DNA of 64,000 bases from assembly GCA_051294905.1 (NCBI GenBank), contig CM119371.1:28832001-28896000 (forward strand), written 5' to 3'. Origin of the DNA: Botryllus schlosseri. Its lineage: Eukaryota. The notes beneath the pieces are model-generated. The model saw nothing but the letters and a program-made list of their open reading frames with translations. It did not search any database and was not told the origin of the DNA. The first letter of the stretch is position 1; each line of letters starts with the position of its first letter. Of the stretch, positions 1,663 through 63,479 are shown one piece after another. The position numbers and the translations under genes are program-made.

Positions 1663-4600
1663 GGATAGTCAAGAACTCCCATCCTACAAAAGTCATTTCT
1701 AGGTTGATGCACGACAGGCAATCCGAAGCGAAAAACGCAAGTCACATTGTCCGGCCGGCACTGGGCATCATTGAGGTATAAATGATGACATACCGTTTAA
1801 GCGATCCAGTTCATCTTGAACGATGGTCCATCCGTGATCAGAAACGTCCTCCTGTCAAATCACAGCACGTTGATTATAGACGCAAATAAAGCGTAACCAA
1901 GCGAAGTGGCTCCTTTGTACGGCATCAGAAAAGTACGTTGATCCCGATCGACGCCACAAAATGTCGGCACGACATGTAGTTATATAGTAGTCCATATCAA
2001 CATTTATGCACTGCATGATATACGTTCTACAATGCAAGGCCAAGAAGTGGCCAAGCGGCCAGTGGAATCTTGAAATTGCAAGAAATACGGACTGTATACA
2101 GCGCGGTACAAGTGTTTTCCTGGTATTTTATGCTGATATCATTTTTTCAGATAAAACGCTTTATTATCACAGTACACCGAAAAATATATTCCTAATAAAC
2201 TTATTTATTTTTCAGTGATGCTGCAGCTGAGTAACAAATTATTGCGTACATTGTTGTTCGCCCACAGAGTATGCAGGTGTCATTACCAAATATAAGTAGT
2301 CTCACCGCATTTGTGAAGCTAGACTGGATGGTTTTCTCCTCTACACAAGAACATTCACTACCCTCGCTTTGTTGTTGGTGAGCTTGATCTAAACACGGAA
2401 GGAAGATTATCGGCACGACAATAGAAATCTAGGTTTCCAAGATGGCGTCGCGGACATGAGCAGCGCTGCGCGACGAAGCACACAGATTTAAAAAATGTAT
2501 AGTTATCTAGAGCAGTGCTTTTAAATCTTCTTGAGCACCATCCAAACTTTTTCGTCAAAATATTATCATCCACACAAACACACCGAATATTGTTTTACAA
2601 AAAGAAAAATGAAGATAATTAACAATATTTTGTTCAGATTTGCAACAAGTAGGATACTGGTTTAGGCCATCAAGTCTCTCATTAAAAAGTCACTCTTTTC
2701 CTCGTCTTGATTTCAACGATAGTGCATTAAAAGCCTCTTCGGCTAGATAAGTGTTGGGTTTGGATGACGAGGTCTTAATAAGAACCACCCTGCACTCCTA
2801 TCCAAAATACAGTGTATTTTCCACGAGCGACAAATGCGTGCTGGCAGAAATCATTTTTAAGAGTATTGACAAAAAGGTCTTGGCGGCTCCACTTTGTCGA
2901 ATGGTTGCCAAGCCCACATGATTGTTTAATGCCTCTGCCTGATGCTTGGAAAATAAGCCCCAAAACTATCAAGGAGAGTAGGCTTATTAGAGCTCGCTAC
3001 CTTACGATACACTGCTCCAAGTTGTGTTCTGCTTTTTTCAATTCCCCAAATTTCTCTTAAATGAACGTGTCGCATTGACGCGCACCCGCTCGTTGCACAC
3101 CGCTGCACTAAAGCATCCCAACGGTCTTTGACGGTGTTTGTCAGAGAAACCAGTAGACAAATCTTATCGGGAATTCAAACCAATTTGTACAATACAATGG
3201 TCGGTACATTATATGATGATTCATACGGTATGCGTGTCTCTCCTATGGGCAATATTACCTGATACAGTGACCTTAGATTCGCAAATTGTAATCCTTTGTG
3301 ACCCACACTTAAATGGTGGTATTTACTACTATCTTAGTGACTCGTGCAAATCGAAGCACAGTTATTACAAAAATATGATGAAGTCAAGTGATAGCATGAC
3401 TTGAGGTGGCTTCTATGAGTCGCCAACACAACGATGTCGATCTTTCGACTCGGACTCGAGTCCAGACAATACATGACCTCTCAGATATTCGTCGATAAGA
3501 GTAAATTGTTGAGTAGAATTTGTGAAGGATCCATGCTTACAGAAATTTCGATTTTTGACGAAACAGTTGTCAAGTCAATCTACGATAGGGTATGTGGAAC
3601 CAATAAAATTGTACGTTTATCAAAGATGAATAGCTCAAATGGGCAAAGGTTTGAGAATATTGAATATATTTTATTAATAATATTCATGATCGAAGTCACC
3701 ATATGCATATTTTTGTGTCTTTCGACCCTTCTCAGAGGAACTTGGCTCTAATGTATCGATCTATATGAGCTAAAACAGAAATCCATTTTGCAAACCACGA
3801 ACCATTCAAAACTAGCATTTTTCCGAGGTCCGTAAATGTTCTGGTTCACGTGGCGCAGGTTCTAAACATGGGCGACAACTATGCACTGTATGCGGTCACA
3901 TTTTCCACAATATACAGTAAAATGGTAAATATAGTTGTCATACCATTTTGAAAATCATCTTCAGTACTAGCGGAGCACGACCGTACGATATCCGGGTGTA
4001 TGGCCTGTTTAGGAAACAAGACAGATAACAATCAGTCACGAACGAGCCACAGTCATAACAGATTGTGGAATGTTCTACAATTTGAATAATGAGTATGGAT
4101 CTAGATACGCACGGAATTCACGATTCGTCACACAATACGAAATATGTTAACAAATCTCGGTACGAGATATTGGATTACATCGGTATTCAAAGTTTCAACA
4201 GAATTCGGACCAGACTTCCAGAAAACCTCGACCACAGCAACTTTATAGCATGTGGGGGTGGGCACAAGAGATACGAGTTGTTGTTTACAAAGAGAGCATG
4301 ATGATTTTCTGGTAGAAGCTGAACAGGGTACTGCTCATTTGAATGACAATCCACAGAACGAAGTTTTTTAGAGTAATCAGCGCGTAGGCAACATTTGTCT
4401 GGAGCAATCCCCATAGAGCAAGACAGGAAGAGAGAAAGAGATGATATTCTTTTTCGCCTGCATCATCGAGATGCTTTGACGACGGAGATGCGACACCTCC
4501 CTCCTTCAGTAAGGTTATCTAGTCTGCACCCCCGTTTTCTCCTTCACATGCTATCTGTGGATGCTGAGCGCCTAGCAGGATAGCGGCGGATACCAGTTTT

Positions 4601-7600
4601 CGAGTCTTTAGTCCGACCCGGTCAGGGATCGAACACGCGACCCACCGATCGAGAAGCTGGACGCATCACAACCACACTCTCGCTCGAGGACTACTCAATT
4701 ATGTAAATAGAACGTCACACCAAACAACTCTTTTCTTGTCACTCATACGACTAAAACGGTTGCCCGACATGAGCATGCGACTCGTTGGAAAATGAAAGTT
4801 GTGCATGGGTAAACACCGGACACGTTAGCATACGTCACTGCAGCATGTGACTTTTATAACCCCAAACGTAACCGTAACCCGAAAAATAAAATAACCCAGA
4901 AATTAACCGCTACATTATGCTAACTCCCAGCATTACCCTAATCTAGTGGTTCCCAACCGGTGGGGAATTCAAATGGTATCTGGTGGGGAATATACCATTT
5001 GTTAAACACAGCACAGTCTACATATTAACGGATACACATGCGCAATTACCGTTACCAGTTAAAAGCTCTCGAATGTATGTATCGAAAATTATATTGCATG
5101 TTGTCCTCGAAAAGTCATTTTAACTCCGGATAACCGATCATGGCGTCACAAACGCATCCAGCACGACCAGTATGACTTGAAATAACGCTCTTGGTGAATT
5201 CTGCGGGTTACCGGTATCGGTTCACAATATGTTTCAGTTATAGGCGATAGTCTTGCGTACTGGTGTGGTTGTGTGTCTTCTGTCCTCAAAACAACGAAAT
5301 AGATGCTCCGTAATGACAAAAAATTTGGGTAGTGGGGAATGAAAGCTCGGGATAAATCTGAAGTGGGGAATGAAGACAAAAAGATTGAGAAAAACTGCCC
5401 TAATCCAGCCCTAACCCACCCTATCCCATAAAGTAACCCACATGCTCATGTGTGGCATGCACAATTGTCGCATGCCGAAATACCACATGCTCATATGTCC
5501 ACGGACCGACTAGAACAGTGGTTCCCAAATGGTGGGGAATTCCCCACTGGTGGGGAATTCAATGGTTTCTGGTGGGGAATAGACGCATTTGTTCAAAATT
5601 ATATACAGGACAGTCTACAAATTTACGGAGACACATGCGCAATAATTACCGTTACCACTTAACTACTCTAGAATGTATGTATCGAAAATTATATTGCGTG
5701 TTGTCCACAAAACCTCATTTCAACTCTGGATGGCAAATGATGGCGTCACAAACGCATCCAGCACGACTAGTTTGATAGCAAATAGCTGCTCTGTGATGAC
5801 AAAAGTGTTGCGTGGTGGGGAACAGGACCGTAACTGCCGCAGCTCAAATCCCACATGGGAGGGGGCAAGTTTGAACAGGGCCAAAATTATTTCGTGAATA
5901 AACATAAATTGTAGAGTATTTTTTTGGAAATTTATACCACTTTTTCAAGATGTCTTCGCGCTGATGGTGCGATTTAATATTGCCGAATATCTTGATTATT
6001 GGGTACACTTCCCCACTAAAATACGTAGAATTTATCGAAATGGAAACTTCGGCGTCGGCCATTACTGCGCCACGACGCTCCAAGACATACGAAGTTATAG
6101 GCCATGTAACATGCGACTCCGAGAAGTGCGCCAGAACGATCAGCAGCGTGAAAATCTCGGTCTGGGAGGAATGCCTTTGTGGTGACCGAAAACTTCGATA
6201 AATATACAATATACATCTTTGTTTAATTGTCCATAGCCGGCTGAATGGCTGGCGCCGAATGTTTCTATCCTGGGGATCTGAACCCCACATGACAAATGCC
6301 ACCCCGCAGGGGAAAATTATTAGCCAGTAAAGCAATACCAATGTGAAATCGTGTGTGCCTTTTAGTGTTGGCCATTTCCATATCTTTTGACATAGCAGAT
6401 ATAGGAGGTTCCGAGATAGCATAATGTAACGAGGTCAATATACCAACGGGTCCGCCAAAGATGTTTAATTCTTATTTAGGGGCCCTACCTTTTCCAACGC
6501 ACCTCACTCAGCTCTACCGATAAATCTGATTACGTGATGAGCATAGAGGCGTTAAAAAATTGATAGCAAAATATGAGCAATTCCCGATCATATTGACCGA
6601 TTTAAACGAAAATTATATAGATTTCCGCGCTTCGCGCGTTTAGTCGCAATAGGGCGACGCACTAAGACAGTTCACCCAATGCAGCTGATAATTAGCGGGG
6701 AAAAAGCATACAAGCTCGGGGGCTGAGGGGGTTCTGACGAAGACCTGTTACAGTCCTGGTGGGGAATGAAGGCCCGGAAGAAATCTGAAGTGGGGAATGA
6801 AGACAAAAAGGTTAGGAACCACTGGACTAGAACGACATTGCAAAAGATAACACTCAAATTATCCTTCACTCAGTTGATATAAACCCACGTCTACAACAGT
6901 TTTCCAAAGAGTTATCAATCTTCATATTACCATGTCGCTCGTCTCCTCATTGCGCGGCTCCTCTTCACAATCTTGACCCTCCGTTATAGGTCGCTGCCCT
7001 TCGTCTTAAATGCAGGATTCATCATAAACCCCTTCTCTCTACGTATATAGTAATCTAAATCAGCGGTTCTCAACCGGGGGTCCGCGGACCCCTGGGGGTC
7101 CGCGAAGCAATTCCAGGGGGTCCGCAAGACGTCTAAATTTTTAAAAAGGTTGATAACCTAATTTTTATTATATTTTTTAATTTGAGAAAGCATGAGGCAG
7201 TTTCGCACCACAGCTGCTAAAACCTCATGACTCATATCATCATAATAATCGTCTGACATGGACTATCGTAATATGGAAACTCATTTCCATTGCCAGTTTT
7301 CCAATAACCTGCTGATACAAACATATTGCTGTTTATAGACGTTTTATTGGGGTTTGTGGAAAAAATTAAGATATGGGGACGATGGTAACGTCAATCAGGG
7401 TGACTTCGTAATGTCTGCGAAACCTTCTCGATTTGAAGTTGACAGTCTCATCAAATTAGTGAACAGTCGTTTGAAATAAAAATTTCCGAAGTATTTCCAT
7501 AATTTGTCCCAATGCAGGGAACAGCTTCTTGGAGGTACAGAACTTTATTATACAATTGAATAGTATATTCATATTGAAATGAACCCGAATATTTTCGGCT

Positions 7601-10600
7601 GACAGTCGTCATAAATCGGACAATGATATACCTGCTCTTAAAGCTCGGCTATCAGATTTTGCGCATTCTTAATGCGGATGCTCTATCGACAAGGTTGATT
7701 TTTTGATGAACAAGGAGTGTTTCGTTGCTATCAAGGCGTTACGATCCAACCCTGAAATTCATATCACCAGTTATATTGGTATATTGGTGCGCTGTTTACT
7801 GCCGTTCGCGACTTGTGTACTTGTCATTATTACGTCACAACGACAAAATTCTTTCTATATTTCGAACTTGGTTAACCTCATTTACTGGCGTTCACTGCTG
7901 AAGAGAGCCAGTCGAAAAGCTTCCAGTAGAATAAATTTAAAAATATGAACGTATTGTTTGCTGTAATGTTCAATTGTTCATTATCGAACATGTTTGCTCG
8001 TAAATATATATGTGAACCTGAACAGAGCAAGTCGTTTCATGACAGTCTTTTTCTGGTTGGAAAACTTGGATCCGTTCTTTGGAGCATAAAATTTGTCTAT
8101 ACTTTTAGATTAGGATTTCACTTTGACGGTAGAAACTCTCTGCGGACCGATCAAAATGCCGTCGCGGGCCGAATGCGACCAGCAGTCCGTATGTTGCCCG
8201 TCCCTGCGCTAGATGCTGGACATGATATGTTCATAAAATATGTGTTTCTTCATTTTGGTGCCATAAATGTTGCGATGACACCAAAAGTATCGTCGGAAGC
8301 GTTATGTGTTAACATTGCATTAGCCTCCACCTATCTTAGCTGAAATGGCTTTCGGCATTCCTCGTTCATATCAAAACGAAGATGCGGATTTTCAAGACAC
8401 GACCACGTACTTCAAGAAATACAGCAGCAAAATTAGCTTTGAAATAATAAAAGTCCACTAATTTCTACATAAATAGTATGATGTTATCTTCAAGAAAAAT
8501 CATTATTTTGTTGTTTATCACAAGCCTACAGTTCATATTTGCACAAGACAGATGAAGGTTGCACCAAAATAGAGCTAAAATCGAGCTAAAACTTGAGGGG
8601 GTCCGCGAGGGTCCGTGACGGTCAAAAGGGGTCCGCGAAGAAAAAAAGGTTGAGAACCACTGATCTAAATTATCGATAGGCATTTCTACAGTCACACAGA
8701 TGGCCAAATAGACCCAAGAGTAATAGACTGAAAAGTGCAAGTCGTCCGCAACAGTGCGGCAATGTGTGAACATTGCAACGGTAGAGGGACCTGGCGGTAT
8801 CCCTCTGGTAGCAAAGTGGCTGTCCGATATATATCAAGTTAGCTTTACTGGCAAAATAATCTGGGAATCCTGTACCGAGGTTTACGAGTTCTTCAATCCA
8901 CAGATGTTTAGTCAAACACGAAGTATATATTGTATCAGAATAAGAATGAGTCTGCGAATATTTCGCATTTTTCGCGTTAAGTAGGCCTACTCGACAAACG
9001 ATATGACGTCACGTCATGCGTTGCGCAAACGGTAGCTTGGCAATAATACGGGACGTGTTGTGAAATTCATATAACGGTACTCAAAAAACGCGGTAAGCAG
9101 CGTCATATCTAGGGTTGCATTTAAAACAAGGCCCCAATTAAAAACATGTTTTTTGTTTTGTTCATTTTTTAACCCATGACACGAATATTTAACAGTGACT
9201 TCATAATCGTCATAATGGATTGACACTGACAATTGAAAATATAGGGTAAATATAGCTCATTTGACGAAATATCTGTATTTTACCTGTTGAACCGACTATA
9301 TCGAGTTTTTCAGCCATCACATATCGATATACGTTGGTTAAATCGGGTTTTAATTGTCCGTAGGCTCATACAAGTTTTTTTTAAAGTATTTACACAATTA
9401 TGGCACAATTTTACAACTTGAGAAAAAACAATTTGCACAACATTTTGCACCCGCTCTCTTGAGGTTGTGCAGATACAAAGCCCTTATATACGACAAACAT
9501 AAGCGAAACTAACATTAGACAGTGTTCGAGTAATATACAGCGAGTCATACCATTTTGAGCCACATCATCTTCAGCAATAGAGCGTAACCGTAGCCGGCGT
9601 ACGATATCCGCATTTCTGGACTGTTTAGGAACCAAGACACATTACAGTTAGTCAAGAGCAGGCCTCAATCATGTAATCAGCCAATCAGCACAATTGGAAT
9701 GATGAGTGGGCCTAAATTGCAATACGACGGAATTGAATAAATGGCTTAACTGACACCACAGGTATACCTTCTACAATATGGAAAACATTGAAAATAGATT
9801 GCAGAACATTCTTCATTGCGAGGGGACATTTATAGTATTACTGAGATTTGGAAACGAAATGCAAAAAAAGCGATCGTAGCGTATTTAGCAACATAATACT
9901 CTTAATACGGCATCAGTCGTCAAATTACCGAGTCGCTCGTATGCTCGTTTCGTAGCTCTTCAAGCTCGTCCGTCTTTGCAGCTTCCGAGGTTTGATTCGC
10001 GTTTATTGCTTGCAGCGCCTCGGCTTAGATACAAGGTTATCAGTCGTTAAGCAGTTCTGTCTTTACAGAGACTGTCATAGTATAGCCTGCCTTGCTAGCA
10101 ATGTTCCCTCTAATTTTTCGACGAGTCTGCGCGCACTCACCAACTCACTGCGCGGTCTCTTGGATAATAGTGCGTAACGACTAAAAAAAAGGTCATCACT
10201 TCGAAGTTTTTGTGCGCAGCTTAGATTTTCTGTGCGCAGAGACCGTGTCAGCAATGCGCAATTGCGCACGTGCGAAACTTAGAGGGAACATTAGGTGCTA
10301 GTAAACGTAACACCGGCAATTTAAACTCTATTACAAGTAAAACTAGAGGTTTTCGGCGTACAATTTTGATTTAAAATTATGGGGCTCGCTCTTTTCGAAG
10401 TAGAAAGCGAAAGACGCGATCGCCGCTACTAACACAGAATGATAGATGATACCACAAATAGATACAGCGTTAAAGAAACATTCCTGAGGCACTTTCACCT
10501 CATTTTTTACAATTGTATGACAATTACATTGATCACAAAGAACTGAAAGTACCTAAAAACATTTTGAGCACAGAGTAGAAGTAGGAAAAGCGTACTTACG

Positions 10601-12854
10601 TACTCAAAACAAGTAGAAGTACTTTTGCTGACCCGCTATGACTCAAGGTAACATCGGGTAGATGCCGGGAATATATGGAAGGACTCGAATTTCCATTTTC
10701 TCGACACAATTTAGCAAGTTGTATTTTCAAGTTAGTCAAAGTCTCATAATACCCCCTGAATCACCTTCACATATAGTCAAAGCCTCCTGCAGTACACAGC
10801 ACACCCACTTCTCGTCATCTCGAAACAAAGTCATGTTTTCGGCGATTATCTCCTGTCAAAGGAATCACATCGTGACGGTTAGTCAACAAGAAACAAGCTG
10901 CAGTCATTCAATCCTAATGAATGTTCCACGGCGGGAGTCTTCCGTAAATTTAGACATAAAAGAATGTTACACTAATACCGTAGAATAACGCAGAAATTGA
11001 AAATGGAGTGGTGGGGGGTGGGCACAATATCATTCTATTTATTGTGAGCTATCGCCGTAGTACAAAGCGCATTCCATCAGAAATCGGTACCTACGCTCTT
11101 CGTAGCATATCGTTGTCCATTATGCAATAATGTGTTTTCTAACCAACCAACCAACCGACCAACCAATCAATCCAGTTAGATCTGAACTATCAACTCTATC
11201 AGGGAAATCAATTTGTCGACCTAGACTAGGGGCGGGCAACATACGGCCCGCGAAGGGATTTTGTCCGGCCCGCGGACAGCTTTCCGTCTTACATGATAAT
11301 GTGGTCCGCGTCCCCAGTCAGCCGAGATTCCCCACCAGTTGCTTGCCATGTCAAATTTCAGTGACTTTATGTTCTTATATACGTGTATTCGCAGCGTGCG
11401 AGAGTGGAGCTTACGCGTCAGTTCGTCGAAGCGAGAACACTGGCATTATCGGCATTTACGATGTACTCAACCCTAAGGTCGTCTGTGGTAATCATGGTGT
11501 TTGTCGACTACAATGGTCATGTACACCAGACTACTATTTCTTATTTTTGATTCCGTAACCGCCGGCTTGTAGCATGGAACACTTTTAGGCTTTTGTAAGG
11601 CACCGCTTATGCCAGGGGTCGCCAACTCAAAATGGGTCGCGGGTCACTTTTCAAATTTCGTATAGAGGACGCGGGCCGCATAAATTCAATATCGAGATGA
11701 ATTAGGCCACACAGTTCAACAATGACGCTATGTCCTCACCTACTCAACCCTAATGAATTGATAGGTTGGTAAATTTGGGGTACCGGGCTTATCGAATGCC
11801 TTGAAATCTTAATTAAGGAGTGCGACATAGTGTTCTATGTGATGTGGACCCGAGCAAATCTCCCGGCTCAGTGAAATTGGTCTACGTCACACTTTCAATT
11901 TGGCCAAAGGCAATTTCACGGTAACTTTTGACCGGTTTGCCGAACGCGAAATTTGATAAAACGGGTATCAATCGAAAGCTACCGGGGTACTGATTGCAAA
12001 AATATAAGTTTTAATCTGCTCGTGGTCCTGGAAACCCCTAAAATCAGCCTGGAATGGTAAATTGTAACGGAGCTTGGTACCGTGACGCCTAGATAAACCT
12101 CCAACACTTAAGTAGTGTTTCTGGAGCCGACCTCGGCCGGACTCGAACCCACACCCATTGGTGTTGTAGCTATGAATTATGCCACTACGCTAGCTCGCCA
12201 CTATTGCACCGTGCATTGATCGATCAGAGAGGAGCACACATGGCAGCGCCTGTATGGCAATACTATTCTCAAATCCACATTGTCTTCGTCATTATCGGCG
12301 AGAAATCGATTTGAAGTGACAATGCTGTCGTTAAAATACATTCATTAAATACGATTTATTCCTTGTATATGTGGATAAATGGACCAATAATGTATCGATT
12401 CAGCAATCCGGCCCGCCGAGTACTTAATTGTCTTATATCCGGCCCGCCGACTGGGGAAGTTGCCCGCCCCTGACCTAGACGCTTTGAAATGAGGAAACGA
12501 AATAAAATCTGTTATTTCTATTGCTCATAGTTGGCAGATTAGTGGTAATGAAGGTTTATGAAGACTATTATTAGTAATTTGCAGTGAATGTAAGTATGGA
12601 AAAAAACGTATAGACACCTATTCCTATATGAGGAACCGCATGAATCCCTAAAAACTGCCACGGGTCCGCTAGGCTGGCCTTAGGGTCAATAGGACGAACA
12701 TCAAAATGAACGCGTACTCAAAATTCGACAGCCGTAGGCATCTCGTAAAATTACCATAGCCTTACCAGTTTCGCCATACACGCGACTTTGCGTTTATCTT
12801 CCTCACTTGCAGCGTCCCGATAAAGATTCCTGAATTCTTGCTCAGGCATGTGAT
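1663..12854 (-). CDS. Multi-exon gene, paralog 1 (partial): helical CARD/death-fold-like segment plus acidic tail of three two-exon modules; function unknown
   Basis: Minus-strand GT-AG exons with compatible phases: 12766-12854 (xHMPEQEFRNLYRDAASEEDKRKVACMAKL), 10765-10852 (EIIAENMTLFRDDEKWVCCVLQEALTICE), 9929-10023 (AEALQAINANQTSEAAKTDELEELRNEHTSDS), 9551-9620 (SRNADIVRRLRLRSIAEDDVAQN), 6931-7004 (DEGQRPITEGQDCEEEPRNEETSDM), 3944-4004 (AIHPDIVRSCSASTEDDFQN), 2306-2388 (DQAHQQQSEGSECSCVEEKTIQSSFTNA), 1794-1851 (EDVSDHGWTIVQDELDRLN), probably 1663-1698. All are open, and all but the first have a counterpart in paralog 2. Start and final exons unresolved; the domain label is inference. Confidence 0.8.
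2513..3140 (-). mobile_element. Degraded hAT transposase C-terminal remnant in an intron
   Basis: Minus-strand PNTYLAEEAFNAL (~2720-2760) resembles the hAT motif TTYLCExGFSxL; CAGTG terminus at 2513; absent from the paralog-2 intron. Confidence 0.5.
4400..4690 (-). mobile_element. tRNA-derived SINE
   Basis: Minus strand has B-box-like GTTCGATCCC followed by GGTCGGACTAAAGACTCGAAAACTGGTATC...CCTGCTAGGCGCTCAGCAT, which resembles a conserved SINE central domain. Boundaries approximate. Confidence 0.6.
4944..5397 (+). mobile_element. hAT MITE
   Basis: TAGTGGTTCCCAA...TTGAGAAAAACTG; TSD CCCTAATC; same family as 5516-6824. Confidence 0.85.
5516..6824 (+). mobile_element. hAT MITE with a nested element at 5823-6758
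   Basis: Outer TIR CAGTGGTTCC/GGAACCACTG, TSD GACTAGAA; inner CAGGACCGTAAC/GTTACAGTCCTG, TSD GTGGGGAA. Confidence 0.92.
7061..8662 (+). mobile_element. Non-autonomous hAT element
   Basis: TIR CAGCGGTTCTCAACC/GGTTGAGAACCACTG; TSD ATCTAAAT; subterminal GGGGTCCGC repeats. Confidence 0.92.
10099..10293 (+). mobile_element. Short hAT MITE
   Basis: TIR AATGTTCCCTCTAA/TTAGAGGGAACATT; imperfect TSD CTTGCTAG/GGTGCTAG. Confidence 0.8.
11227..12472 (+). mobile_element. hAT MITE (GGCCCGC family) carrying a SINE insertion
   Basis: TIR TAGGGGCGGGCAAC/GTTGCCCGCCCCTG; TSD ACCTAGAC; empty site in paralog 2 at ~63835; sister copy at 32673-33559. Confidence 0.93.
11824..12199 (-). mobile_element. tRNA-derived SINE nested in the MITE
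   Basis: Absent from the sister copy 32673-33559. Minus-strand head GGCGAGCTAGCGTAGTGG (A box) ... GGTTCGAGTCC (B box). Confidence 0.75.
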
Positions 12855-14077
12855 CTACGGTTTAAATTAAAATGTACATTATCGACATGATACCAAGAAT
12901 TTGTCATCATGATGGCAGAGATAAGCAAACAGGGATTTGGATTTCTTCATGGTATGCCGGATTTGAGGACTTTGATATGATTCGGACTTGCAGTTGTTTC
13001 GAGAGTTAATTTCGATTTATAGACAGATATGATCAAAGAATCCACATGCTTCTACTCAATTCCAAGTTACGAATGTGCAGGAGTATACGTGGAGCATGCA
13101 GGCAAAGTCAACTTGAGCTCTGATATGTGACTTATGACTTATGGTGTGGTGCCGCCGTCATTCGACAATGCCGTGTATAATATAGGACGTATAGGCATTA
13201 GATAAGAAAATCGGAATAGCGAACATTAGGTACCTGTTGCGTATCCATAGCTCTCATCGTTCATCATCCTTTTTGCTATTGTGATGACAAGACTTTTACA
13301 ATTTTACGAACCACGTATACTGACACTATGCAACTAAATACAAGCGTAGGATAAAAATCAAGTTACTAATAGAAAACTGCCTCGCAAGTGTGGATGCGAG
13401 TAAGCTACTGCTACTACGCAGGTTTCGACGCGGCACTCCAGTTCCAATGAGTGCCGATTTAGCAGGCGTCGATTCCTGTTTGTTGCGGTAAATCTGCTCC
13501 ATAGGGAAATCGGCAAACGTTGCGTATCTGTCTATTCAACGCAAAATAATCAATCGATCCAAATGAACAATAATACCGATTCTCTTAGTCAAAAGAAGAT
13601 GCTTCAAGCGAGATTCGCAATAGTGCTTGCTTGTCTCTTGCTCGATAGAATGGAGCTCGAGACAACAGTAACGCGTTCAATTTATAGTACTAGCGAAAAG
13701 ATAATTGAACAGTAATCAAACAATCAAAATCAAAAATCGTAAAATTACAATGATTGGAAAACCAGAATACAAAATAAGGACAGTTACATTGGCGTACTGA
13801 TTCCTCTAAAAACGTCCTCAAATAAAGACTAGCATATAACATGCGCATTGCGCAATCGCAAACAACGCATGCGTCGAGGCCTACGCTTTCAAATGAACCT
13901 CACGCTTATATTTTATCGTTTAACTCGCGAGGACGTTCCACCACGAACCAAAACATTGCCAATGAAGGAAGAGTTAGGTCCTTAGCCTATACGCAGCACA
14001 CTCGAGAAGAAATTGTCTTTGCAGCTGAATTTACCTTTCTCAATATTGATATGACAGAGGTTTTCGAAGCGATATAT

Positions 14078-15325
14078 CAGGGGTTCTCAACCCGCGGCCC
14101 GCGGGCCGCATGCGGCCCGCAGACGATTCTTTTGCGGCCCGCGACATCTTTCAATATGAATGCAATTACTAGTGGTACAGTATCGTTATGGAAGACCGAT
14201 GTGTCACATATGTCGAAGAACAGTTGTTGAAACGAGCCTAGAAGCTTCAAATGATAGCACGATAGTTTCTTCTGAAGTTATACATATCGCCTGATCTTAG
14301 AGAAAACGTTGCTGGCTTGGTTTCAAGCCCAGCAATCCATATTTCGAGGCATTTTTAAAATTGCCGACGACGTGACAGACGCATTGTTCAAAATTGCTTG
14401 GAATATCGATAAACCGAAGAGTCTGCTAGAGAATGTGTGACTTCAATAAAAATTTAACGTACTGTGCGAATATTCGCTGTTTCCGGAACTTGGCAGCAAT
14501 TTTAACATCACCTGACAAATTTCGAGGCTACAGTTGTCTGATTCAACACTCAACAATCACCAGAAGAGTAACAGATATCTCAGTCGATCTTTTATCGCAT
14601 GTTTTGAAACACGCATAGAATACTTTAGCCTAGCATTGGACGAATCCATCGACTGCACACAGTGCACACTGCACAGTGCACACTGCACACACATTGCAGA
14701 GCTAATTATCCAGGTGCGTTTTATAAGAGTGGACATATTTCCAGAGGAAATGCTGAGGGGGCAAACGTGGGAAGGGGACCAGTGAAAAACATCAATTTGA
14801 CAAAGCTGACTTCTGTAACTATTGGTGTAAGGCCCCAGTCATGGAAGGAAAGGAGAAGAGCTGACTGTTTGCTCAGAAATGTCCCCGAACGTCTGACTTC
14901 TTATAGCACTGAGAGCTCAAAGTGATAATGACCTCTGCAACGAAAATATCACCGTAATTTTATACTTGCTCTCTCAGGCATTGAAACAGCCAGTTCGGTA
15001 CTCTGGTGGAAGGGTTTGAAGGGTACACATACCAACATGGCAACGAATAGAATGTACGCTCCATGAAGGGATTTAGCCTACTTGCGCCACTTGAAGATAG
15101 ATATCCTGAAAAAAAAAAACAGCAACTGCAAACTTACAAACGCTCTCCATTAATGCTTTAGAATGCATAAAAATGTACTAAATTCCCGTATAAGACTTGT
15201 AAATAGGCTACTGTAGCCTAAATTTGATAGTGGTTCACGAATATATGGTGATAACGTTTTGCGGCCCGCGGCGTCTTTTAGTGTGAAAATGCGGCCCGTT
15301 ACACGAGGGAAGTTGAGAACCCCTG
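14078..15325 (+). mobile_element. Deleted hAT (Buster/SPIN-like) element with transposase remnants
   Basis: TIR CAGGGGTTCTCAAC/GTTGAGAACCCCTG; TSD CGATATAT; remnant EYFSLALDESID...LIIQVRFI. Confidence 0.9.
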
Positions 15326-17053
15326 CGATATATATACGACGCGTTGAGACAGGAAGCTTTAAAATCTCAGCTGGATGTGTGGTGAAAAGCTGGGTTGGGT
15401 TGCGAAACAATGAACTCCATTCCATTCATTGTCCGTTATAGCTTGAAATTCAATCACGGCTAATCCCAGACATTCAATTCCAACTGTGAAAAAAAAATTA
15501 CCAGCTCAGATTAATGCTGTGATAGGTGGGATGCTGTGCTTTACAAGGACTTTTATAAGAATACAGTGCAATCGACTATTATGAAACAAAATACCAGCGA
15601 TGGGAAATAATTGTGATCTTAAAATGACTAATACAACAGCGTATAGTGGCCTGATTTCATGAACTCCAGGGGTATATTTTAGGTGTCGTATGGGCTACAC
15701 GAATTTGACCGCGGTGGATAAGTGGATTTGGTGATCTACATAATTCGGAGTCTTTGTCATGACAATATGTCACAGTTCCTATGAGCTTAGCAACTGTATT
15801 TGGCGGAAACTAATCATTAAACCATGAGCGACAGCAATTGCGAGGCCTTTCCCACGCCTATGGGTGCCGCTTGAAGAAGTGATAAATTAGGTCGACATGT
15901 AATAGAATTAAGAAGTACAGATTATGACGGTGACATTGTCGCTGGTTCTGTTATTTTTTACCCGCTCATGACACACAATGTACAATGCGATGTAATGAGC
16001 AGATGGGAGAACATCGAAACGATAAAGTACGGTGTCTCGATCTGGCAAGCCCGTCTGCCTAATGCCCGATCTATCGCTCTTTTTCATTATCTTCCTTGAA
16101 TTCCTCCATGGCTGGGTGTTTTTCTGTGCATTTGTGCAATGACACTGTGAGCATAGTGAGGCAGGGGAAGGCCACCAACTCGCCCACGTATTATAGCATT
16201 TGGGAAGGTGAAAACTCGCCGCATAGGGTTCTCGAAGTGCCAGGGGCCCGTGAACTATTTCGCCCTTTGAGAGGGTGCTGCGAGGACAAGATGGTTGAAA
16301 ACCACTGATCTAGAGTCTAGAGACTCTAGACCAAAGGCCATATGTTCTGATAAGAATTAATGGAGTGAATTCCGTTTAAATGGTTTGGGCGAATGTATTA
16401 AGCTTCAACATTTAGATCAAATCCTTTCAATTGTAAATTGAAACGCAGTTTCTCGAGTAAGTAGTGAAGAGTGGTCACTCGTAATATTTAATTTACATTT
16501 GCAACATGGCAAGGAGCTCCGACCAAGAGGCGCTTTGGATGTGTAGCCTATTGACCATTTTGCCCATCTACTTCAGTGGTTCTCAACCTTGTCTCCAGCG
16601 CCCCCCCCCCCCCCCCGGGGTCGATTTGGATTTTGAAGGGGGATGAAACGCTCATGGGGCGAAATGGGGAGCGCTGAGCTCAGGGGGGCGCTGAAGAAAA
16701 ATGGTCTCGCAGTAGATGGTGTAGCCTACTAAGGACATATAACTATATGATCATATGTATCCCTGAGTTCTCATTGCAAACTAACATGCGACAAAATCTG
16801 TCAGCTCACAACGTTTTTCGCCGCGCTCATCGCGAAATATCCACTGACCTTGTTTCCATGAATGCATTGGTTCATTTTAATTCATGTAAAATGAATTTGG
16901 CGTGATTTTGGATTGCCAATTCCCCGTTATGACACTCCCGTCACGCTAGCTACTCCCAGGTCGTTTCGGCACCTTCCTATCTTTTCATTGTATCGCAGTT
17001 CTGTGCGGTTTTGTAATAGCGAGAATATTAATAAGCCGATACTATACTGATAG

Positions 17054-18870: not shown

Positions 18871-19173
18871 CAGTGGTTCTCAAACTGGGGGACGTGCCCC
18901 CTTTGGGCAGCGTGAAAGCACCTGAATGGAGGGGGGCGCGAAGCTCCGGTAAACTGAAATTTTTTCCGCGCCTGGCGCGATTCCCCTCCGTTTCATAGTT
19001 ATTGCTCTGTGTATACTGTACATAGTCCGAATTTCATTAACCATGCATACCATCAAACTATCTGTAAGGATTGCTAACATTCTGGTTTCATTGTGTGATA
19101 TGACGATAACGGGGGGGGGGGGCACGAAATATTTCACTGTCATAAAGAGGGGCGTGTCTATAAAGAACCAGTG
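18871..19173 (+). mobile_element. hAT MITE
   Basis: CAGTGGTTCTCAAACTGG start; TSD GGCTAAAC; same family as 42429-42751. Confidence 0.85.
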
Positions 19174-19292
19174 GGCTAAACGAAATCTTAATATTTCAAA
19201 AATTAATTAACAGCAAATAAACTCTTCTGAAACCTGTGCTGAACACGTCTTCATTTTATTAATATCAAGCGTTTAACTCCCTTCAAATTTAG

Positions 19293-27443: not shown

Positions 27444-27517
27444 ATTTTAACTATAGGCTACCTCGGACATAAAGTTTGAAAAATTCCAGTTGGCGATAAT
27501 AGGGGTTTATACCTGGC

Positions 27518-45113: not shown

Positions 45114-45180
45114 GTAATCTGACGATTGATAACTTTTTTAGAAAACATGTTGGATCAATTGAGTCACGGGTAATCCGAGC

Positions 45181-49586: not shown

Positions 49587-51215
49587 TTGCGAATTTTGAA
49601 AATTGGTTCGGATCTTGCAGCTTCAATACCAAACTCCTCCGATGACTTTCTCTCGTTCTTGAGTCCTGGCCCTCAGAAATCCATTTTTCTAGAGCCGACA
49701 AGTAAAGGAGAACTTGCGATCGTATTATCTGAAATGAAAAGTAACAAAGCAGTAGGACCCGATCTCATCCCAACGCACTTTCTGAAGCTAGTCTTTAATA
49801 TTATTGGTGATGTTATATGCATTTTCTTTAATGAGTCGATACTTCTGGGCATTTTCCCAGATGCACTGAAAACTACCAGAGTAATGCCAGTGTTTAAGAA
49901 AGGCTGTAAAAAGCAAATTTCTAACTACCGACCAATATCTGTTCTGCCAAATCTTGCCACGGTTTTTGAAAAACTGATTGACTGCCGACTCAAAAAATTT
50001 TTTGAATTGAATGCAGTACTGTCTCCGACTCAGCATGGATTCAGATCAAACCACAACACCAACCATGCAATACTATCAATTGTAACGGACTATTACAAAA
50101 CCATCAAGCAAAAAAAAAGTGGCTGCAGCATTTTTATCGACCTGCGCAAAGCTTTCGACACAGTTAACCACAGAATCTTAAGATACAAGCTAGAACACTA
50201 TGGAATCAGGGGTATTGCAGCAACTCTACTTGAAAGCTACCTGGCAAATTGCAAACAATTTGTTAAACTGGGGACATTAAGATCGACTACCAGAGATATA
50301 ACTTGTGGAGTCCCACAAGGCTCAGTCCTTGGACCGACTTTTTTCCTCATTTATATTAACGACATTGTTAATGCATCTTCATTCCGCACAACCCTATTTG
50401 CTGATGATACTCACCTCTTCATAACCTCCAACACTGTCAATGATTTGCATGCATCCGTGAATAGGGAACTCCCAAAAGTGTCGAGATGGCTGCAAGCAAA
50501 CAAACTAAGCTTGAATGCAGATAAGACCGAGATGCTCCTTTTAAATAATGCCAACCATAGTTTCACTGTGAACATCAATCATAAACAAATCTCCATATGT
50601 GACTCAGTAAAATATCTCGGTGTCACTATTGATGGTAAAATGTCTTGGAAGCAGCATATTGGATGCACAATATCAAAACTAGCTCGATGTGTGGGAATAA
50701 TGACCCGTCTGCAATCTTTGGTTTCCAGATCAATACTACGAACCATATATTTTTCTCTTTTCCACTCTCACCTGCAATATGGAATCGTAGTATGGGGAAG
50801 TGCATGCAAAACATTTCTGTGCAGAATTCGAACCCTGCAAAACCGTGCGATACGGCTGATCTCATCTGTACCTTTACGTACCAATCTATCGCCTTACTAC
50901 CGTAAGCATCGAATTTTGCGAGTTGATGAGCTATATCGCTTCGAAGTATCAAAAGTTGTTCACAAATATTTTTCCAATAGTCTGCCTCCTGTGTTTGATG
51001 ACTTTTTCATACCTGCTAAAAATGTCCATTCCCATTACACGAGATCCTCGTCAAAGGGAAATATCTACTTACCCCCACCCAATAGCAACTTAACTAACAG
51101 ATCTATCGACTACTCGGGACCTATCATTTGGAATGCATTACCACCACATATCCGTGAATTGCCTTATGATAGATTCAAAAAAGCCCTACTTGATCACCTC
51201 TTATCGTTAGACTAA
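49587..51215 (+). CDS. Reverse transcriptase ORF2 (5'-truncated) of a CR1/L2-group LINE
   Basis: 542-codon open frame: KAVGPD, NYRPISVL, QHGFR, FIDLRKAFDTVNH, GVPQGSVLGP, LFADDT, LNADKTE, KYLGV, WNALP. No APE domain. Confidence 0.93.
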   Translation: MRILKIGSDLAASIPNSSDDFLSFLSPGPQKSIFLEPTSKGELAIVLSEMKSNKAVGPDLIPTHFLKLVFNIIGDVICIFFNESILLGIFPDALKTTRVMPVFKKGCKKQISNYRPISVLPNLATVFEKLIDCRLKKFFELNAVLSPTQHGFRSNHNTNHAILSIVTDYYKTIKQKKSGCSIFIDLRKAFDTVNHRILRYKLEHYGIRGIAATLLESYLANCKQFVKLGTLRSTTRDITCGVPQGSVLGPTFFLIYINDIVNASSFRTTLFADDTHLFITSNTVNDLHASVNRELPKVSRWLQANKLSLNADKTEMLLLNNANHSFTVNINHKQISICDSVKYLGVTIDGKMSWKQHIGCTISKLARCVGIMTRLQSLVSRSILRTIYFSLFHSHLQYGIVVWGSACKTFLCRIRTLQNRAIRLISSVPLRTNLSPYYRKHRILRVDELYRFEVSKVVHKYFSNSLPPVFDDFFIPAKNVHSHYTRSSSKGNIYLPPPNSNLTNRSIDYSGPIIWNALPPHIRELPYDRFKKALLDHLLSLD

Positions 51216-56732: not shown

Positions 56733-59296
56733 GTTACTATTAGGCAATTAAGAATTTATAATCAAAGTACAAATATCATATTTATCCCACGTAATTATTC
56801 TAAACAATGGTGGACAAGAAACAATGTGAACTATTTTTAATCTCACCACCTCATAGACACGTCCTTCAATTAGGAGACCACAATGTATGGGATGTTACAG
56901 CTTGGCTTGTGTAGCTTGGAAAAATCGTCCTGTTGTGTTGGTAATTTCACTGTCAGGTTTACCGAATTCGTCTTCTCGCAGCCTCAGCCGAATCACTGCG
57001 TGCATATGTCGTAATACCGACTTAAATTAATCCATGTTATATCTACTTTATTATGCATACAGATTACGCCATGGATCGGCAACCCTAGGCACGCAAGATA
57101 ATTGCCATAGCACGATGTATGATTTGATGCGCATTCTTATAATCGGGTTTCTTGCAAAAAGTGAAACAAATGTTTTCAAAATGGAAAAAGCTCGAAGGTG
57201 AATCCAAATTATTTTGTAAATCAACATGAAGTAGGGTCTTTTGGTACGGATTTTATTTTTCTTCAAAATGTTATCCGCACTTCCCACGAATAGTACGTAT
57301 TTGGCCCGTGGGCCGTAAAATGCCCAGGCCCAGGATCGTTTTTATTTTTATTTTGAAAAATGAAAATATGTGTTTACTCTTGTAATAGTCATTGGTATTA
57401 CATTTTCGTCTTCGCGACCAACGAGAATGTGCAAATGACTCCATTGGGGTCGCGACCCCTAGCTTGAGAACCCCTGCCCTAATATATCAAAAAATATATA
57501 AATGCAACTTTCATTAAAATTAAATGCGACTTTCCCAGATTCCGAGTGCAATAATAACTTTCCCTACTTAATACCTGATTAATAACCTTTCGCGACCCGC
57601 GCCTAAATATAACATAATGCAATGGAAGCCTAACACGGTTTCGACTTCTTATCGAGATGAAATATACGACTTATCGAGATGAAATATACGACATAGTAAG
57701 TTCTACTCGTCCTTGCGTATCGTCGACGACAATTTGGGTGAGCTCGTCAACATCAGAAAGCTTGTTTCGCATTATCGGCATTCGCGCGTGTACACATGAT
57801 AAATTAACGCTTTCTTGGCACATTAGAAAAATCCAACCTCCTTCTATTTGGAGTCACCTCTACTTTCGTCAGGTTCACTAAATCTTACGAACGCAGTTTA
57901 CTCGAAATCAGTCTTTTGTATTCAAAATCAAATCAAAAAAATTATTAGGTACACTAAATGGCCCCTTTCGCCCCGACTATCTCCAGAGAGTCCTTCCAGC
58001 TTGCAACAACATTGTCATTTTTTCAGCAACAAATCTCTGAAATACAAGCGACAAGTAGGTCAACATTATAAAGCACTGAAGGAGAAAGAGGGCGTATCGG
58101 CTTCATCCGAGTGTATAGCGTTACCACGAGGCTATAGTGTCAGGTCTCAGTTACCCGCTCAAAAATAGACTAGACGGTTTTAAACAGGATGCTATTCCGA
58201 CGCTATGGTTTAAGCTCTCTAGTGGCCGGATTCTTGCAGATACATTCAATCGGCAAATCCTCGAATGTTTGCCAATTCCATTCCATTCTTTGCGAATAAC
58301 GATGTTGCTCGAATGAAGCTCACATGATCCATGATATATATAATACTGTTTTGATATAGCGTTTATAATAAAGCATTCTACTGGAAAACAACTGTATGGA
58401 TTTTGAGGTAATATATTGGAATCATTAGGCTGGTCCGGCACGCGAGCAATCAAACTTGTGAATCCGGGTCGCGACCCAAGTTGAGTTTGGCACCCCTGTT
58501 GTAGACAGACAACAGGAACCACAGCAGGTGCCCTGGCATTCCAGACCAGAGGCCCGCCCACTACCCGCTATGTTATGGACTTTATATAATCGAAAATTAA
58601 TGAAGATTATGGACCCTTGCATTTTTTAGACCAGTGGTTCTTAAAGTATGGGTCGCGACCCAAACATAGGTCGCGAAGGGTATAATTTTGGGTCGCGACG
58701 GTACCAGAACGGTCCTTTAATATGTATGTAATATTATTTGAGGTCATTGGCTTCCGGGGGACTGGGTTCCACAATTGTATTTGAAGATGAGACATCGGGG
58801 TATGATGGTGGATATATAACAGGAAACATAGACATGGCGCTCTCAGAACTATCAGAACTAAAGTCCAGTTGATATCAGAATTATTCCGAATCGATAACGA
58901 TACAACACACTTTTCCGACATTGCCGTTATTTTATGCGAATATTAAAATCGAATGGAACTTTTCAACTGGCGGCAGTAAGTTCATTTGTTTACAATCAAA
59001 CACTAATCTGGCAACAAATACTTTCAGTCAAACAGGCAAAGTAGCAGTTCATGAAACGCAACTAATCAGCATTTCTCCAAGAAGTCCACTCGTTATGCCC
59101 CGGATAAATTAATGCAATAGTATTGAAGAACCTCTCTCTGGGAATAACCGGAGGAAAGGTATAGTACCGTTGGATATACAAAAATTCCAACAGTAGTTTG
59201 CTGATACCGATATTTCAACGGAGACGGATATCGGCTGGGTTGTAATAACCCCCAGCTCACAGGCGACAAATGATACAGTAATGCACTTGGCCTTAC

Positions 59297-62200
59297 CGCT
59301 AATCCCCAGTCAGCGAAAGCGGGCTTCGCTTTTTCACGTTCGGCGTCCAGCGAGGCTTCAAGCTCCAGCACGCGGGCTTAAATCCAAATGCATATTATTG
59401 GTACTACGGACGAAACAGTGTACAGTGGTGTAGCAGAGTGCAAAATACGCCTCCAAGACTTTCGACTTGCACATTGTGATTTCGTATTACGCAATTTTCA
59501 CTCCCTCACTCTTATGCCAATGCAAGATTTTATCACGTACGTGAACATGATTCACACCATATTCAAGGATCGCAGGGCCAAATTGTCACTGAGTCATCAA
59601 AATCCTCAAGTTCTGTGACCGTGAACTCGAGTCGACAATTTTAGTCACGCGCAGTGATAGAAAATACAAGTACAAAGCTGACAACGTGAATATTCCGAGG
59701 CTCACGGATAGTCAGGAGGTCCCATTCTATAATAGCCATTTCTAAGTTGATGCACGTCAGACGATCCGAAACGTAAACCAATCACATTATCCGGCTATGG
59801 ACACCATGGAAGTATGGATGATGACATACCGTTTAACCGATCGACTTCATCTTGTACGATGGTACATCCTTCAGAAATGTCCTCCTGTTAAATTGCAGCA
59901 CGATGATTAGCACACGTAGATAAAGCGAAACCAAGCAAAGCGGCTCCTCGGTACGGCTTCAGAAAAGTACGTTGATCCCAATCGTTCCCACATAATATCG
60001 ACACGAGAAATCATATAGCTAGTTATACAGTAGGCTAGTCTAGATCAACATTGATGATATTATATAATGAAAGGCCGATAACTGGCCAAGCGACCCGTGG
60101 AAGATCGAAACTACAAGAAATAGGGACTACGTGGTTGTCGACTCGAGGTTGGCCGATATCGGGATTTTAAGCCGGCAGCAATAGCGCCGATATCACGTAT
60201 TTTCCTACTATTTTATGCGGTTATCATTTTTTCACATTGAACGTCTTACTAAACGCCTTATTAATCACTGTTAATTGAAAACTATATCCCTCATAAACGT
60301 TATAGATTTACGGCCAAACTGCAGCAGGTCCAACTTGCGTATTGCGTACATTTATAGTTCACCCACGGAGCATACTGGTATCAATGACCATATCACAAGT
60401 AGCCTTACCGCATGAGTGAAGCAGGAGCAAAAGCTTTGCTCCTCTTCACAAGAACATTCCGTTGCACCATCCACGCTTTCTTGTGGGCGGGATTGATCTG
60501 AACAAAAGAGATAATCGGCACGATAGTCAAAATCTATGTTGGCTTGTCCAAGATGGCGCCGCGGACCCGAACAGCAGTAATGTGGATTTTTGAAATCAGT
60601 AGTAAGCATTTAGTTAATTCAGTAGGCATTTAGTAAGCACCGAATTTACGCTGCCGTACCAGTTCTAGATATCCATGTGCCGTACGAACGAACAGAACAA
60701 CCCTTCTCTAGTTGGCCAGAACGTATCAGACTATAGGAGCTAAATCAGAAACCCATTTTACAAGCCACGAACACTCCAAATGGGCATTTCTTCGAGGTCC
60801 GCAAATGCTTGGGCTCACGCGGCGCCGGTTACACGCTCACTTACTAGGGCAAACATAAGCTATCAACTATGCAGTCGAATATTCTTCGCAATATACAATA
60901 AATGGTAAATATAAGAGCCATACCATTTTGAGAATCACTATCTTCAGTGCTAGAGCGGGACCATGGCTGGCGTAGGATGTCCGCGTGTCTGGCCTGTTAA
61001 GCAAACAATACAAATTACAATTATGGCAAAGCCCGTGTATATCATTTGAGTTACAATTATATTTCAAGATAGGGTATGATTATATTGGGTTGTGGGTTAC
61101 CACTTCTGTTAGGTTCAGCGGACTGGATTATGCAAATAGAACGCGATACTGGGTCGCACGAAACAACTTTTTCCTGCCACCCATATGATTGAAACGATAT
61201 TGTTCTACATGCCACTCAAATTACCCGTCATTCAGTGGATATAAATCCACGATTCCTATAACAATTTTCTAAAAAGTTATCAATCGTCGGATTACCGAGT
61301 CGCTCGTATCCTCATTGGGCAGCTCCTCTTCGTCCGCAGCGTCTGAAGTATGACCCTCCGTTTTCGGTCGATGCATTTCATCTTAAATGCAAGATTCATC
61401 GATAACTGCTTTTCTCCGTATATTTATGTATATAAATATACAAATAAAAATCATCGATAGGCAGTTGTACAGTTACAGAGACAGCCAAATAGACCTAAGA
61501 TGAATAAGCGTGAAAGTCGTCCGCAACAGTGCTAAAATTAAAGACACTATATGGACATTGAACAATATCGAAAACCATATCGCGGTACACAAACACAAGG
61601 CCTCAAGTCGCCATGGACGACTGTGACGTGTCGTAATAATAGTATCAGGCCATAAGCTAACTAAAAACCCATTTCACGAGTCTCCCAACATTCACAATTG
61701 ACATTTTCTCGCCGGCCATAAACGTATTCGACCCACGCGCTTCAGGTTTCACAGATACAAAGCCCTCATACATCTACGTCAAACATAAGCGACATCAACA
61801 ATAGACAGTGGAAGAGTATAAATATATACAAGTCTTACCATTCTGTTTCGCATCATCTTCAACATTAGAGCGCGACCGTAGCTGGCGTACGATATCCGCA
61901 TGCATGGCCTGTTTTTCAACCCATTTCACATTATAGTTAGTCAAGAACGGGTCACAATCATGTAATCATTCAATCATCACAATTGTAACGATGACTGGGC
62001 CTAAATTACAACACGTGCAGAATTGCATAAATCGCTCAACAAAAATTGAAAAAATGGTTGTTATGGATCGCAGAACATTCATTGTATCGGAACATTCATA
62101 GTCAAATTAGGATTTGGATGCGAAATCTACAGAAAATGCTACCGTAGCATATTAAGTATGACGAGGCCTTGAGGAAGGTGAATGGGTGTCTCTAAGACAG

Positions 62201-63479
62201 CATGCTCATTTTCTCGTAGACGATGAACTGTGTGACAGTTCATTTGAGTGTTAAATGACAATGGCATTATTATGAGTGTCAAATAATTCAAATCATGGTG
62301 GGAATTATGGTGGTAATGCAAATTTTATCATTCCAGTGACGAACAATCCAAGATAGGCTACGATTATATTAGGTTGCTAGTTGGCCATTGGACTGGGTTG
62401 TGGTGATGGCTTAGACTCGATTCAGGGATATATCGATATATAGATAAATAGCCTATATCAGCCTGTATCACCGGATTAGATTATGCAAATAGCACGTGTA
62501 ATGTGACGCATGAAACAACGTTGTTACTTGATCTTCTGCGGTTAGTGCGACACTTCTCAATATGGCAATGCAATTCGCTATCACTGATTCGCTAATGTGT
62601 GCAGCTGTACACTCTCGTTTTATGTAACATAATACTGTAAAACGGAATCAATCGTTAAATTACCACGGTGCTCGTAAACTCGTTGCGTAGGAGGTCTAGA
62701 TCATCTACCTCGGCAGCTTCTGGAGTTTGATTCCCATTCATTGCTTGCAGCGCCTCGGCTTAAATGCAAGATTCATCAATTCAGTTACCAAGCAGTTCTG
62801 TATTCACAAAGTCTGTAAGAGTATAAGTCTGCGTTGCTACGCATGTAGAGTAGACGTAATAACGTTAATCCAATCTCAATTAGAAGTAGAGGTAGAGATA
62901 TTCAATCGATGTCAACACTACTTCTAATGAAATTAGGGTTTGAAAGGTACTTTTGGAAATTGATTCGGTGGTGGGGTCGCACAATTTTGCCAGCAAATTA
63001 TCAGGTTCGCTACCTCAGAAATTGAAAGCGAAAGACGCGTTCGTCACGACTAACACAGAATGACAGATGATGCCACAAATAGATGCAGTGGTAAAGAAAC
63101 ATTTCCGAGGCATTTTCACCCCGTATTTTGACAATTTTATGACAATTACATTGATCACGAAGAAGTGAAAGTATAGTCTAAAACCATGTTGAGTACAGAG
63201 TAGAAGTAGGGAAAATATACTCAACTACTCAAGAAATACTTTTGTTGACCCATTTTTACTCAATGTCTCATCGGGTGGATGCTGGAAATTTATGGAAGGA
63301 CTCGAATTTCCCTTTTCACGATAAAATTTTCATATTATCAAGTTAGCTGTTTTTTCACGTTAGTCAAGGTCTCATACTACGATAAAATCACCTTCACACA
63401 CAGCCAAGGCCTCCTTCAGTAAACCGCGCACCCACTTCTCGTCATCCCGAAACAGGGTTATGTTTTCGGCGATTATCTC
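59297..63479 (-). CDS. Multi-exon gene, paralog 2 (5' part beyond the window end)
   Basis: Exons 63392-63479 (EIIAENITLFRDDEKWVRGLLKEALAVCE), 62664-62758 (AEALQAMNGNQTPEAAEVDDLDLLRNEFTSTV), 61839-61908 (AMHADIVRQLRSRSNVEDDAKQN), 61296-61381 (DEMHRPKTEGHTSDAADEEELPNEDTSDS), 60924-60993 (ARHADILRQPWSRSSTEDSDSQN), 60409-60497 (DQSRPQESVDGATECSCEEEQSFCSCFTHA), 59830-59884 (EDISEGCTIVQDEVDRLN), 59706-59741, and candidate 59297-59376 (xRVLELEASLDAEREKAKPAFADWGLA). Same order, phases and splice sites as paralog 1; introns are homologous but lack most MITE insertions. Confidence 0.8.

Follow-up and report, generated by a model that had tools for sequence, protein, structure and literature searches.

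Near-neutral divergence with retained acidic residues in a predicted short-exon gene family of Botryllus schlosseri

Vertebrate SCPP/SIBLING genes are arranged as tandem copies in which short exons, separated by phase-0 introns, encode acidic, disordered products with a signal peptide and a richness in S-x-E motifs. Some disordered regions keep bulk molecular features despite divergence of their sequences (PMC6634968, PMC13004512). Scaffold repeats of KNL1 multiply and diverge fast and in a lineage-specific manner (PMC4558858), and the Botryllus histocompatibility factor (BHF) is described as a largely conserved, proposed scaffold with several disordered regions and membrane-targeting N-terminal cysteines (PMC12065747). 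In this study, we analyzed 64,000 nucleotides (nt) of Botryllus schlosseri DNA (assembly GCA_051294905.1, contig CM119371.1, forward-strand positions 28,832,001 to 28,896,000; hereafter the window, numbered from its first letter). The window carries two copies with open reading frames, A and B, and one broken copy, C, of a many-exon gene, and our results support the conclusion that this coding unit is real and has been under purifying selection since A and B separated.

The window is DNA of animal type, has a G+C content of 42%, is rich in repeats and shows no CpG depletion. Comparison of the window with itself yields eight collinear blocks of 71-85% identity that pair copy A (1383-12628) with copy B (59417-63988), together with inverted pieces within 41267-45152 that make up copy C. 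Copies A (1663-12854) and B (59297-63479 and onward) lie on the minus strand, and copy C (41334-45113) on the plus strand. A reading of the same letters without database searches, here called the sequence-only reading, had described eight GT-AG exons shared by A and B on one strand, and we find their limits, lengths, splice sites and phases to be as it claimed, with AG acceptors and GT donors throughout (Table 1). The limits that it gave for the unit fall where the 36-nt exon of A ends (1663) and where the 88-nt exon of B starts (63479). When joined, the exons contain no stops in either copy, compared with 9-17 stops in the two other sense frames. Its further claim, that exon lengths differ by multiples of three, also stands; of the eight exonic gaps, six are multiples of three (the others, of 2 and 4 nt, sum to 6), compared with 13 of 66 intronic gaps.

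These traits would rarely survive by chance. In neutral simulations the absence of stops had a probability of 0.015, preservation of the frame in every exon one of 0.0008 and retention of 32 splice bases one of 0.002; the choice of exons by those very traits inflates all three figures. A filter for AG..GT pairs conserved in both copies, which left out the 36-nt exon Z, returned 22 pairs, and the frame is open in 16 of them, all located inside predicted exons.

Acidity, by contrast with those traits, played no part in picking the exons, so a test of acidic codons is unaffected by exon choice, and its outcome is therefore independent evidence of a frame that has been translated and selected after the A/B split. 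Acidic residues are kept at 43 of 46 positions, compared with 30.0 +/- 3.2 expected, a level reached in none of 2000 neutral simulations. Among six residue classes tested, the acidic class alone departs from neutrality and the five others match expectation; aromatic residues, for example, are kept at the neutral rate (4/8). The four gap-free exons give the same result by themselves (18 of 20 acidic residues kept, P=0.008), and in acidic codons the third position changes at the overall rate (9/43). In alignments made from DNA only, the dinucleotide GA is retained in 39 of 42 cases in frame (codon positions 1-2), compared with 8 of 19 out of frame (P=4e-5) and 93 of 143 in introns. This retention is frame-specific, and thus reflects neither mutation bias nor a frame-blind splicing enhancer. 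Because an acid-rich ancestor would inflate retention, a two-lineage simulation starting from such an ancestor was added; it predicts 18-22 discordant columns where seven are seen, and across eight settings between 0 and 4 of the 1500 runs per setting came down to that number.

Outside the acidic codons, the divergence between A and B looks relaxed rather than demonstrably adaptive. The strong amino-acid divergence noted in the sequence-only reading is present (119 of 187 aligned residues are identical), but equals the neutral expectation of 113.9 +/- 6.5. Its description of the family as fast-evolving, if taken in an adaptive sense, is not borne out, since non-acidic codons differ at 34, 27 and 33 of 137 sites for positions 1, 2 and 3, and such equal change at all three positions points to drift. 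The ratio of non-synonymous to synonymous substitution that it proposed to compute between the paralogues is 0.69 over the 187 codons (dN 0.22, dS 0.32; bootstrap confidence interval 0.44-1.14), a value from two sequences that is not above 1 as an arms race would have it. A plain dN/dS analysis would thus call such genes neutral, and it is the class-specific test that reveals the selected coding frame. This kind of test is a simple way to confirm orphan genes that neither open reading frames nor homology make visible. Should the retention of acidic residues recur in other alleles and species, the family would provide a clean, naturally occurring case in which to test whether charge alone constrains disordered proteins.

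The sequence-only reading missed the internal repeat structure of the gene, as well as two of its exons, Ea and X4. Among 128 exon pairs compared, X1/X2 and Y1/Y2 stand out clearly as paralogues (z 7.4-15.9), and the next four best pairs are all of X type, involving Ea and X3 (z 3.4-4.9). The repeat unit is a pair of exons with phases 1-0 and then 0-1, and paralogous exons with frame-preserving phases are what growth by tandem duplication of exon pairs predicts. Two modules are copies of one another, and four probably are. A module of this kind, comprising 45-59 codons, could be copied without a frame shift, and the protein may therefore have been lengthened stepwise. The whole unit would then have been duplicated at least twice, with one of the resulting copies inverted and lost to decay.

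Copy C bears out the earlier description of a third, inverted and decaying copy, with three of its six exon remnants broken and three intact; it lacks Y1 and anything past X2. Intact and dead copies thus lie side by side, as expected of a birth-and-death family, A and B being intact over nine exons each. In Eb, copy C is about equally distant from A and B, while in X1 its distance is 0.13-0.14 to B and 0.24-0.25 to A, a pattern that reflects either quicker change in A or an exchange between B and C. The intron between Eb2 and X1b of copy C has shrunk to 30 nt (43756-43785, plus strand), and has intact splice sites and an in-frame stop inside. About 300 nt upstream of C's Ea there is a short, strongly acidic open frame (40915-41045, plus strand) that has no counterpart upstream of A; it is what remains of an element or, alternatively, an upstream exon that has been lost.

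Table 1. Exons of the three gene copies and elements inserted in copy A, by window position
Feature	Copy	Positions	Strand	Length (nt)	Phases	Remark
Ea	A	12766-12854	-	89	1-0	Probably X type; additional to the eight exons of the sequence-only reading; predicted amphipathic helix
Eb	A	10765-10852	-	88	0-1	Best-conserved exon (22/29 amino acids)
X1	A	9929-10023	-	95	1-0	
Y1	A	9551-9620	-	70	0-1	
X2	A	6931-7004	-	74	1-0	X1 paralogue
Y2	A	3944-4004	-	61	0-1	Y1 paralogue
X3	A	2306-2388	-	83	1-0	
Y3	A	1794-1851	-	58	0-1	
Z	A	1663-1698	-	36	1-1	
Inserted element with inverted ends	A	7065-8658	.			Within the Y1-X2 intron
Further inserted elements	A	10100-10292 and 11228-12471	.			
Eb	B	63392-63479	-	88	0-1	Upstream exons of B lie beyond the window end
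X1	B	62664-62758	-	95	1-0	
Y1	B	61839-61908	-	70	0-1	
X2	B	61296-61381	-	86	1-0	
Y2	B	60924-60993	-	70	0-1	
X3	B	60409-60497	-	89	1-0	
Y3	B	59830-59884	-	55	0-1	
Z	B	59706-59741	-	36	1-1	
X4 (predicted)	B	59297-59376	-	80	1-0	Good AG/GT; frame open after Z
Ea	C	41334-41421	+			1 nt short, donor lost
Eb1	C	42164-42249	+			Acceptor lost, 2 nt short
X1a	C	43489-43581	+			Both splice sites lost
Eb2	C	43668-43755	+			Sites and frame intact
X1b	C	43786-43880	+			Sites and frame intact
X2	C	45031-45113	+			Sites and frame intact

The known parts of the predicted products of A and B comprise 217 and 223 residues, with net charges of -32 and -35, and aspartate plus glutamate make up 25% of the repeats. 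The products are predicted to be disordered from around residue 50 onward, and beyond that point in A the FoldIndex is negative for almost every window. Ea-Eb is predicted to be more ordered and amphipathic. We lean towards the reading that A and B are paralogues of a lineage-restricted coding gene whose product would be a disordered, negatively charged tether or scaffold. Under this proposal, selection would now act on splicing, frame and charge (about 25% acidic residues and a net charge of roughly -32 to -35 over some 220 residues). The charge, rather than a folded surface, would bind basic partners or cations or keep two ends apart, and the roughly 60 residues of Ea-Eb, which are predicted to be helical, might serve as the docking end. 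Searches for LIR, MELT, RGD, YxxL, CK2, S-x-E and sequon motifs revealed no enrichment in A or B, and a basic patch occurs in A only (P=0.044 among seven patterns). We also considered a selective autophagy receptor, for which an xLIR pattern has been defined (PMC5119064), and rejected it: neither copy matches xLIR, Z holds a bare W-x-x-L core, and the aromatic residues are neutral.

Compared with the systems described at the outset, the locus shares the weak residue conservation of disordered regions that preserve a feature, the feature here being acidity. However, acidity is retained at individual positions between recent paralogues, while the rest of the sequence is neutral. Unlike activation domains, in which aromatics are important, A and B do not conserve theirs. 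Growth by multiplying and diverging repeats recalls KNL1, but the repeated unit at this locus is a pair of exons; there were no matches to MELT-like repeats, and we detected no short motif conserved among the exon pairs. The likeness to BHF is that of an ascidian disordered scaffold, a comparison by description only, and we recognised no neighbour of the fuhc type in the window. With SCPP/SIBLING genes the locus has in common the tandem copies, the short exons and an acidic, disordered product, but its intron phase alternates between 1 and 0, and the S-x-E motif shows no enrichment. In all, this is a young gene family of a tidy but fairly ordinary kind, and no new pathway is indicated so far.

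Several observations weigh against a lineage-restricted coding gene with a disordered acidic product. The confidence interval of dN/dS spans 1, and differing columns make up 19.2% of exons, compared with 17.4% of alignable introns (a figure biased low through block selection). Only two intact sequences stand behind the selection tests; acidic codons of B are also kept at 12 of 14 positions in two intact exons of copy C, too few for a neutral control. Ea and X3 share only moderate homology with X1/X2, as seen from the z scores of 3.4-4.9 and from held-out profiles (E 0.6-3.6), and neither pairwise z nor held-out profiles gave Eb and Y3 any significant likeness to Y1/Y2. Moreover, copy A may be truncated, because donor, profile and signal-peptide scans found no upstream X- or Y-type exon or signal-peptide-like first exon for it, and because its similarity to B, which extends past Z to 1383, ends about 40 nt before the expected start of X4. 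Finally, the predicted junctions, to which the sequence-only reading had proposed mapping RNA, do not appear among the strongest joints in the RNA that we mapped. Four bulk RNA runs bearing the same species label (about 39 million records, 6-13% of each run) were mapped at 86% likeness to 900-20800, which covers copy A; the exons of B are about 80% identical to those of A. No predicted intron is among the 15 strongest joints of 68. Depth is zero in all four runs in the bins 1564-2227, with Z and Y3, and 3556-4219, with Y2, and it ranges from 0 to 0.28 across the runs in the X3 bin, and reads within 900-20800 are stacked on mobile elements. These data count against strong expression of A in the four bulk samples, and a search of sequencing runs found no RNA holder of the sequence among the runs listed. 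Of the sequence-only reading, the coding unit, the duplication with decay of a third copy and the lack of a recognisable family are supported; fast evolution in an adaptive sense is not borne out.

The rival readings, not all of which are mutually exclusive, differ in how well they accommodate these data. Least unlikely among them is a secreted or membrane-bound product, such as an acidic extracellular stalk or a calcium-binding matrix protein, with its signal peptide encoded in an unseen first exon. Module boundaries in phase 1 are typical of extracellular mosaic proteins, and each module here starts and ends in phase 1; in addition, Eb of all three copies carries an N-x-T sequon, and the acidity that is under selection would suit such a product. 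Nevertheless, a simple scan of 12.9-59.2 kb revealed no signal-like first exon, sequons and S-x-E motifs do not exceed their numbers in shuffles, and the known part contains no membrane helix (maximal 19-residue hydropathy 1.11 and 0.65).

How the gene ends bears on a rather less likely reading, in which A and B are blocks that arose by internal duplication within a single, very long gene on the minus strand, spliced across about 46 kb of mobile elements. The predicted exon X4 of copy B was detected with the Ea profile (E 0.053) and resembles Ea and X3, with z scores of 5.4 against Ea of A (partly circular) and 4.5 against X3 of B, unmatched in 500 shuffles. Since X4 lies downstream of Z, the gene extends beyond Z. 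The end of Z and the start of Ea are both in phase 1, as one continuous gene would have it, the scans yielded no first exon for A, and the assignable open reading frames between the copies are pieces of mobile elements. However, X4 ends in phase 0 and would need a further 0-to-1 exon, which was not found, the joining intron would exceed the longest of the other introns about 15-fold, and B may have a terminal exon of its own at about 58740-58860. There, a 46-codon, Ser/Pro-rich frame with a PPSY motif (58737-58874, minus strand) is followed by ATTAAA right after its stop; this frame is a possible terminal exon of B, which would require an extra 0-to-2 exon. When read through its donor, X4 remains open for 94 codons (59096-59377, minus strand), and this stretch has no homologue among the proteins searched (see below). 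A terminal exon placed directly below Z (acceptors 1573 or 1565 in A, and 59612 in B) was rejected on account of a 7-nt deletion in A, and X4 fits better.

It is just as improbable that one or both copies are recently silenced pseudogenes, the selection signal having arisen before silencing. Nine exons of A and nine of B are free of stops, frameshifts and losses of splice sites, whereas C has lost three of six, and the four RNA runs come from unspecified tissues, which tempers the absence of reads from two exon-bearing bins of A in every run. Other features of A agree with silencing: it may lack both ends, its introns contain many insertions, and in X1 it has 5 synonymous and 12 non-synonymous private changes, compared with 4 and 2 in B. 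Intron lengths range from 95 to 2926 nt in A and from 88 to 755 nt in B.

A bolder version of the favoured reading, which we hold to be more doubtful again, is that charge is the only thing selected, such that some 45 Asp/Glu positions are held, other residues drift neutrally and length grows through copying of exon pairs. The product might then be a nucleic-acid mimic or a decoy against virus-like elements, possibly made from one giant B-A transcript. In that case the family would supply a natural, evolving example of a polyanion.

The sequence-only reading recognised no known gene, and we likewise found no relatives in protein, profile, structure, Atlas and metagenome searches, for all of which the queries were exon-sized pieces. 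The family may accordingly be novel and lineage-specific, as judged from these short queries. In protein searches that covered longer proteins only, the Y1 piece gave five candidates (none with E<=10), the Eb+X1 alignment 2047 (none with E<=1) and the X4 read-through 222 (none accepted). No match to Pfam was obtained for seven exon pieces, and pieces with intronic read-through produced three sub-threshold hits that we do not accept; the best E values against PDB sequences were 0.55-0.93. An Eb profile hit seven entries of a representative library, each as 6-21 short stretches, and the two inspected are unrelated repeat proteins. The ESM Atlas placed Eb with trypsin (0.91, 125 shared features) and Ea with unnamed clusters, both at chance level. 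A metagenome scan retained five loci among 594 pattern matches, and the one inspected (L001) contains a 7-residue seed in an unrelated open reading frame and is taken as chance. A literature search, by text and not by sequence, found no description of the family. Resemblances to CARD, Bcl-2 BH1, BESS and kinesin W-acidic sequences are at most tentative. The first of these underlies a reading that we regard as very improbable, in which Ea-Eb forms the back half of a CARD/death-fold domain in an innate-immune adaptor with a long acidic linker. Amphipathic helices are predicted, in keeping with this, and the Trp-containing helix of Eb may resemble those of RIG-I/MAVS-type CARDs, which is a lead only. 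Yet Pfam and PDB are blank for Ea, Eb and Eb+X1, Ea resembles the gene's own X exons, and the fold predicted for Eb+X1, read from copy C, consists of two long helices with a predicted template-modelling score (pTM) of 0.33 and no Foldseek match, and is uninformative.

The least credible reading makes the unit a transposable element, or a fragment captured by one, with incidental exons. Mobile elements are abundant in the region and surround copy C, but the exons match no transposase or reverse transcriptase, no terminal repeat was seen on reading at the limits of similarity, the repeat-derived reads found on true elements are missing from the exon bins, and the selection on acidic codons is frame-specific. 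Among the mobile elements is a broken R2-like retrotransposon outside ribosomal DNA (35163-39900, plus strand). It starts with a 28S rRNA fragment (35163-35349, Rfam) that runs up to the R2 target site, which we take to lie near 35300, such that about 140 nt of upstream 28S sequence seem to have been carried along with the element. N-terminal pieces of its open reading frame (35331-36486) are separated by about 2.6 kb of interrupting sequence from a reverse-transcriptase piece (39127-39900, Pfam RVT_1). A second element, of the LINE (long interspersed nuclear element) type, is 5'-truncated, with a short tandem repeat at its start and a 542-codon reverse-transcriptase frame (49587-51215, plus strand, RVT_1).

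Other features of the window include a 30-nt tandem repeat of about 11 copies (29437-29856, plus strand), which has a 139-codon open frame and no Pfam match, and a decayed array of C2H2 zinc fingers with stops and frameshifts (34060-34500, plus strand). Within the gene itself, the Y2-X3 intron contains a block that is conserved in both copies (2433-2464 in A and 60548-60575 in B) and that carries what is presumably a YY1-like motif.

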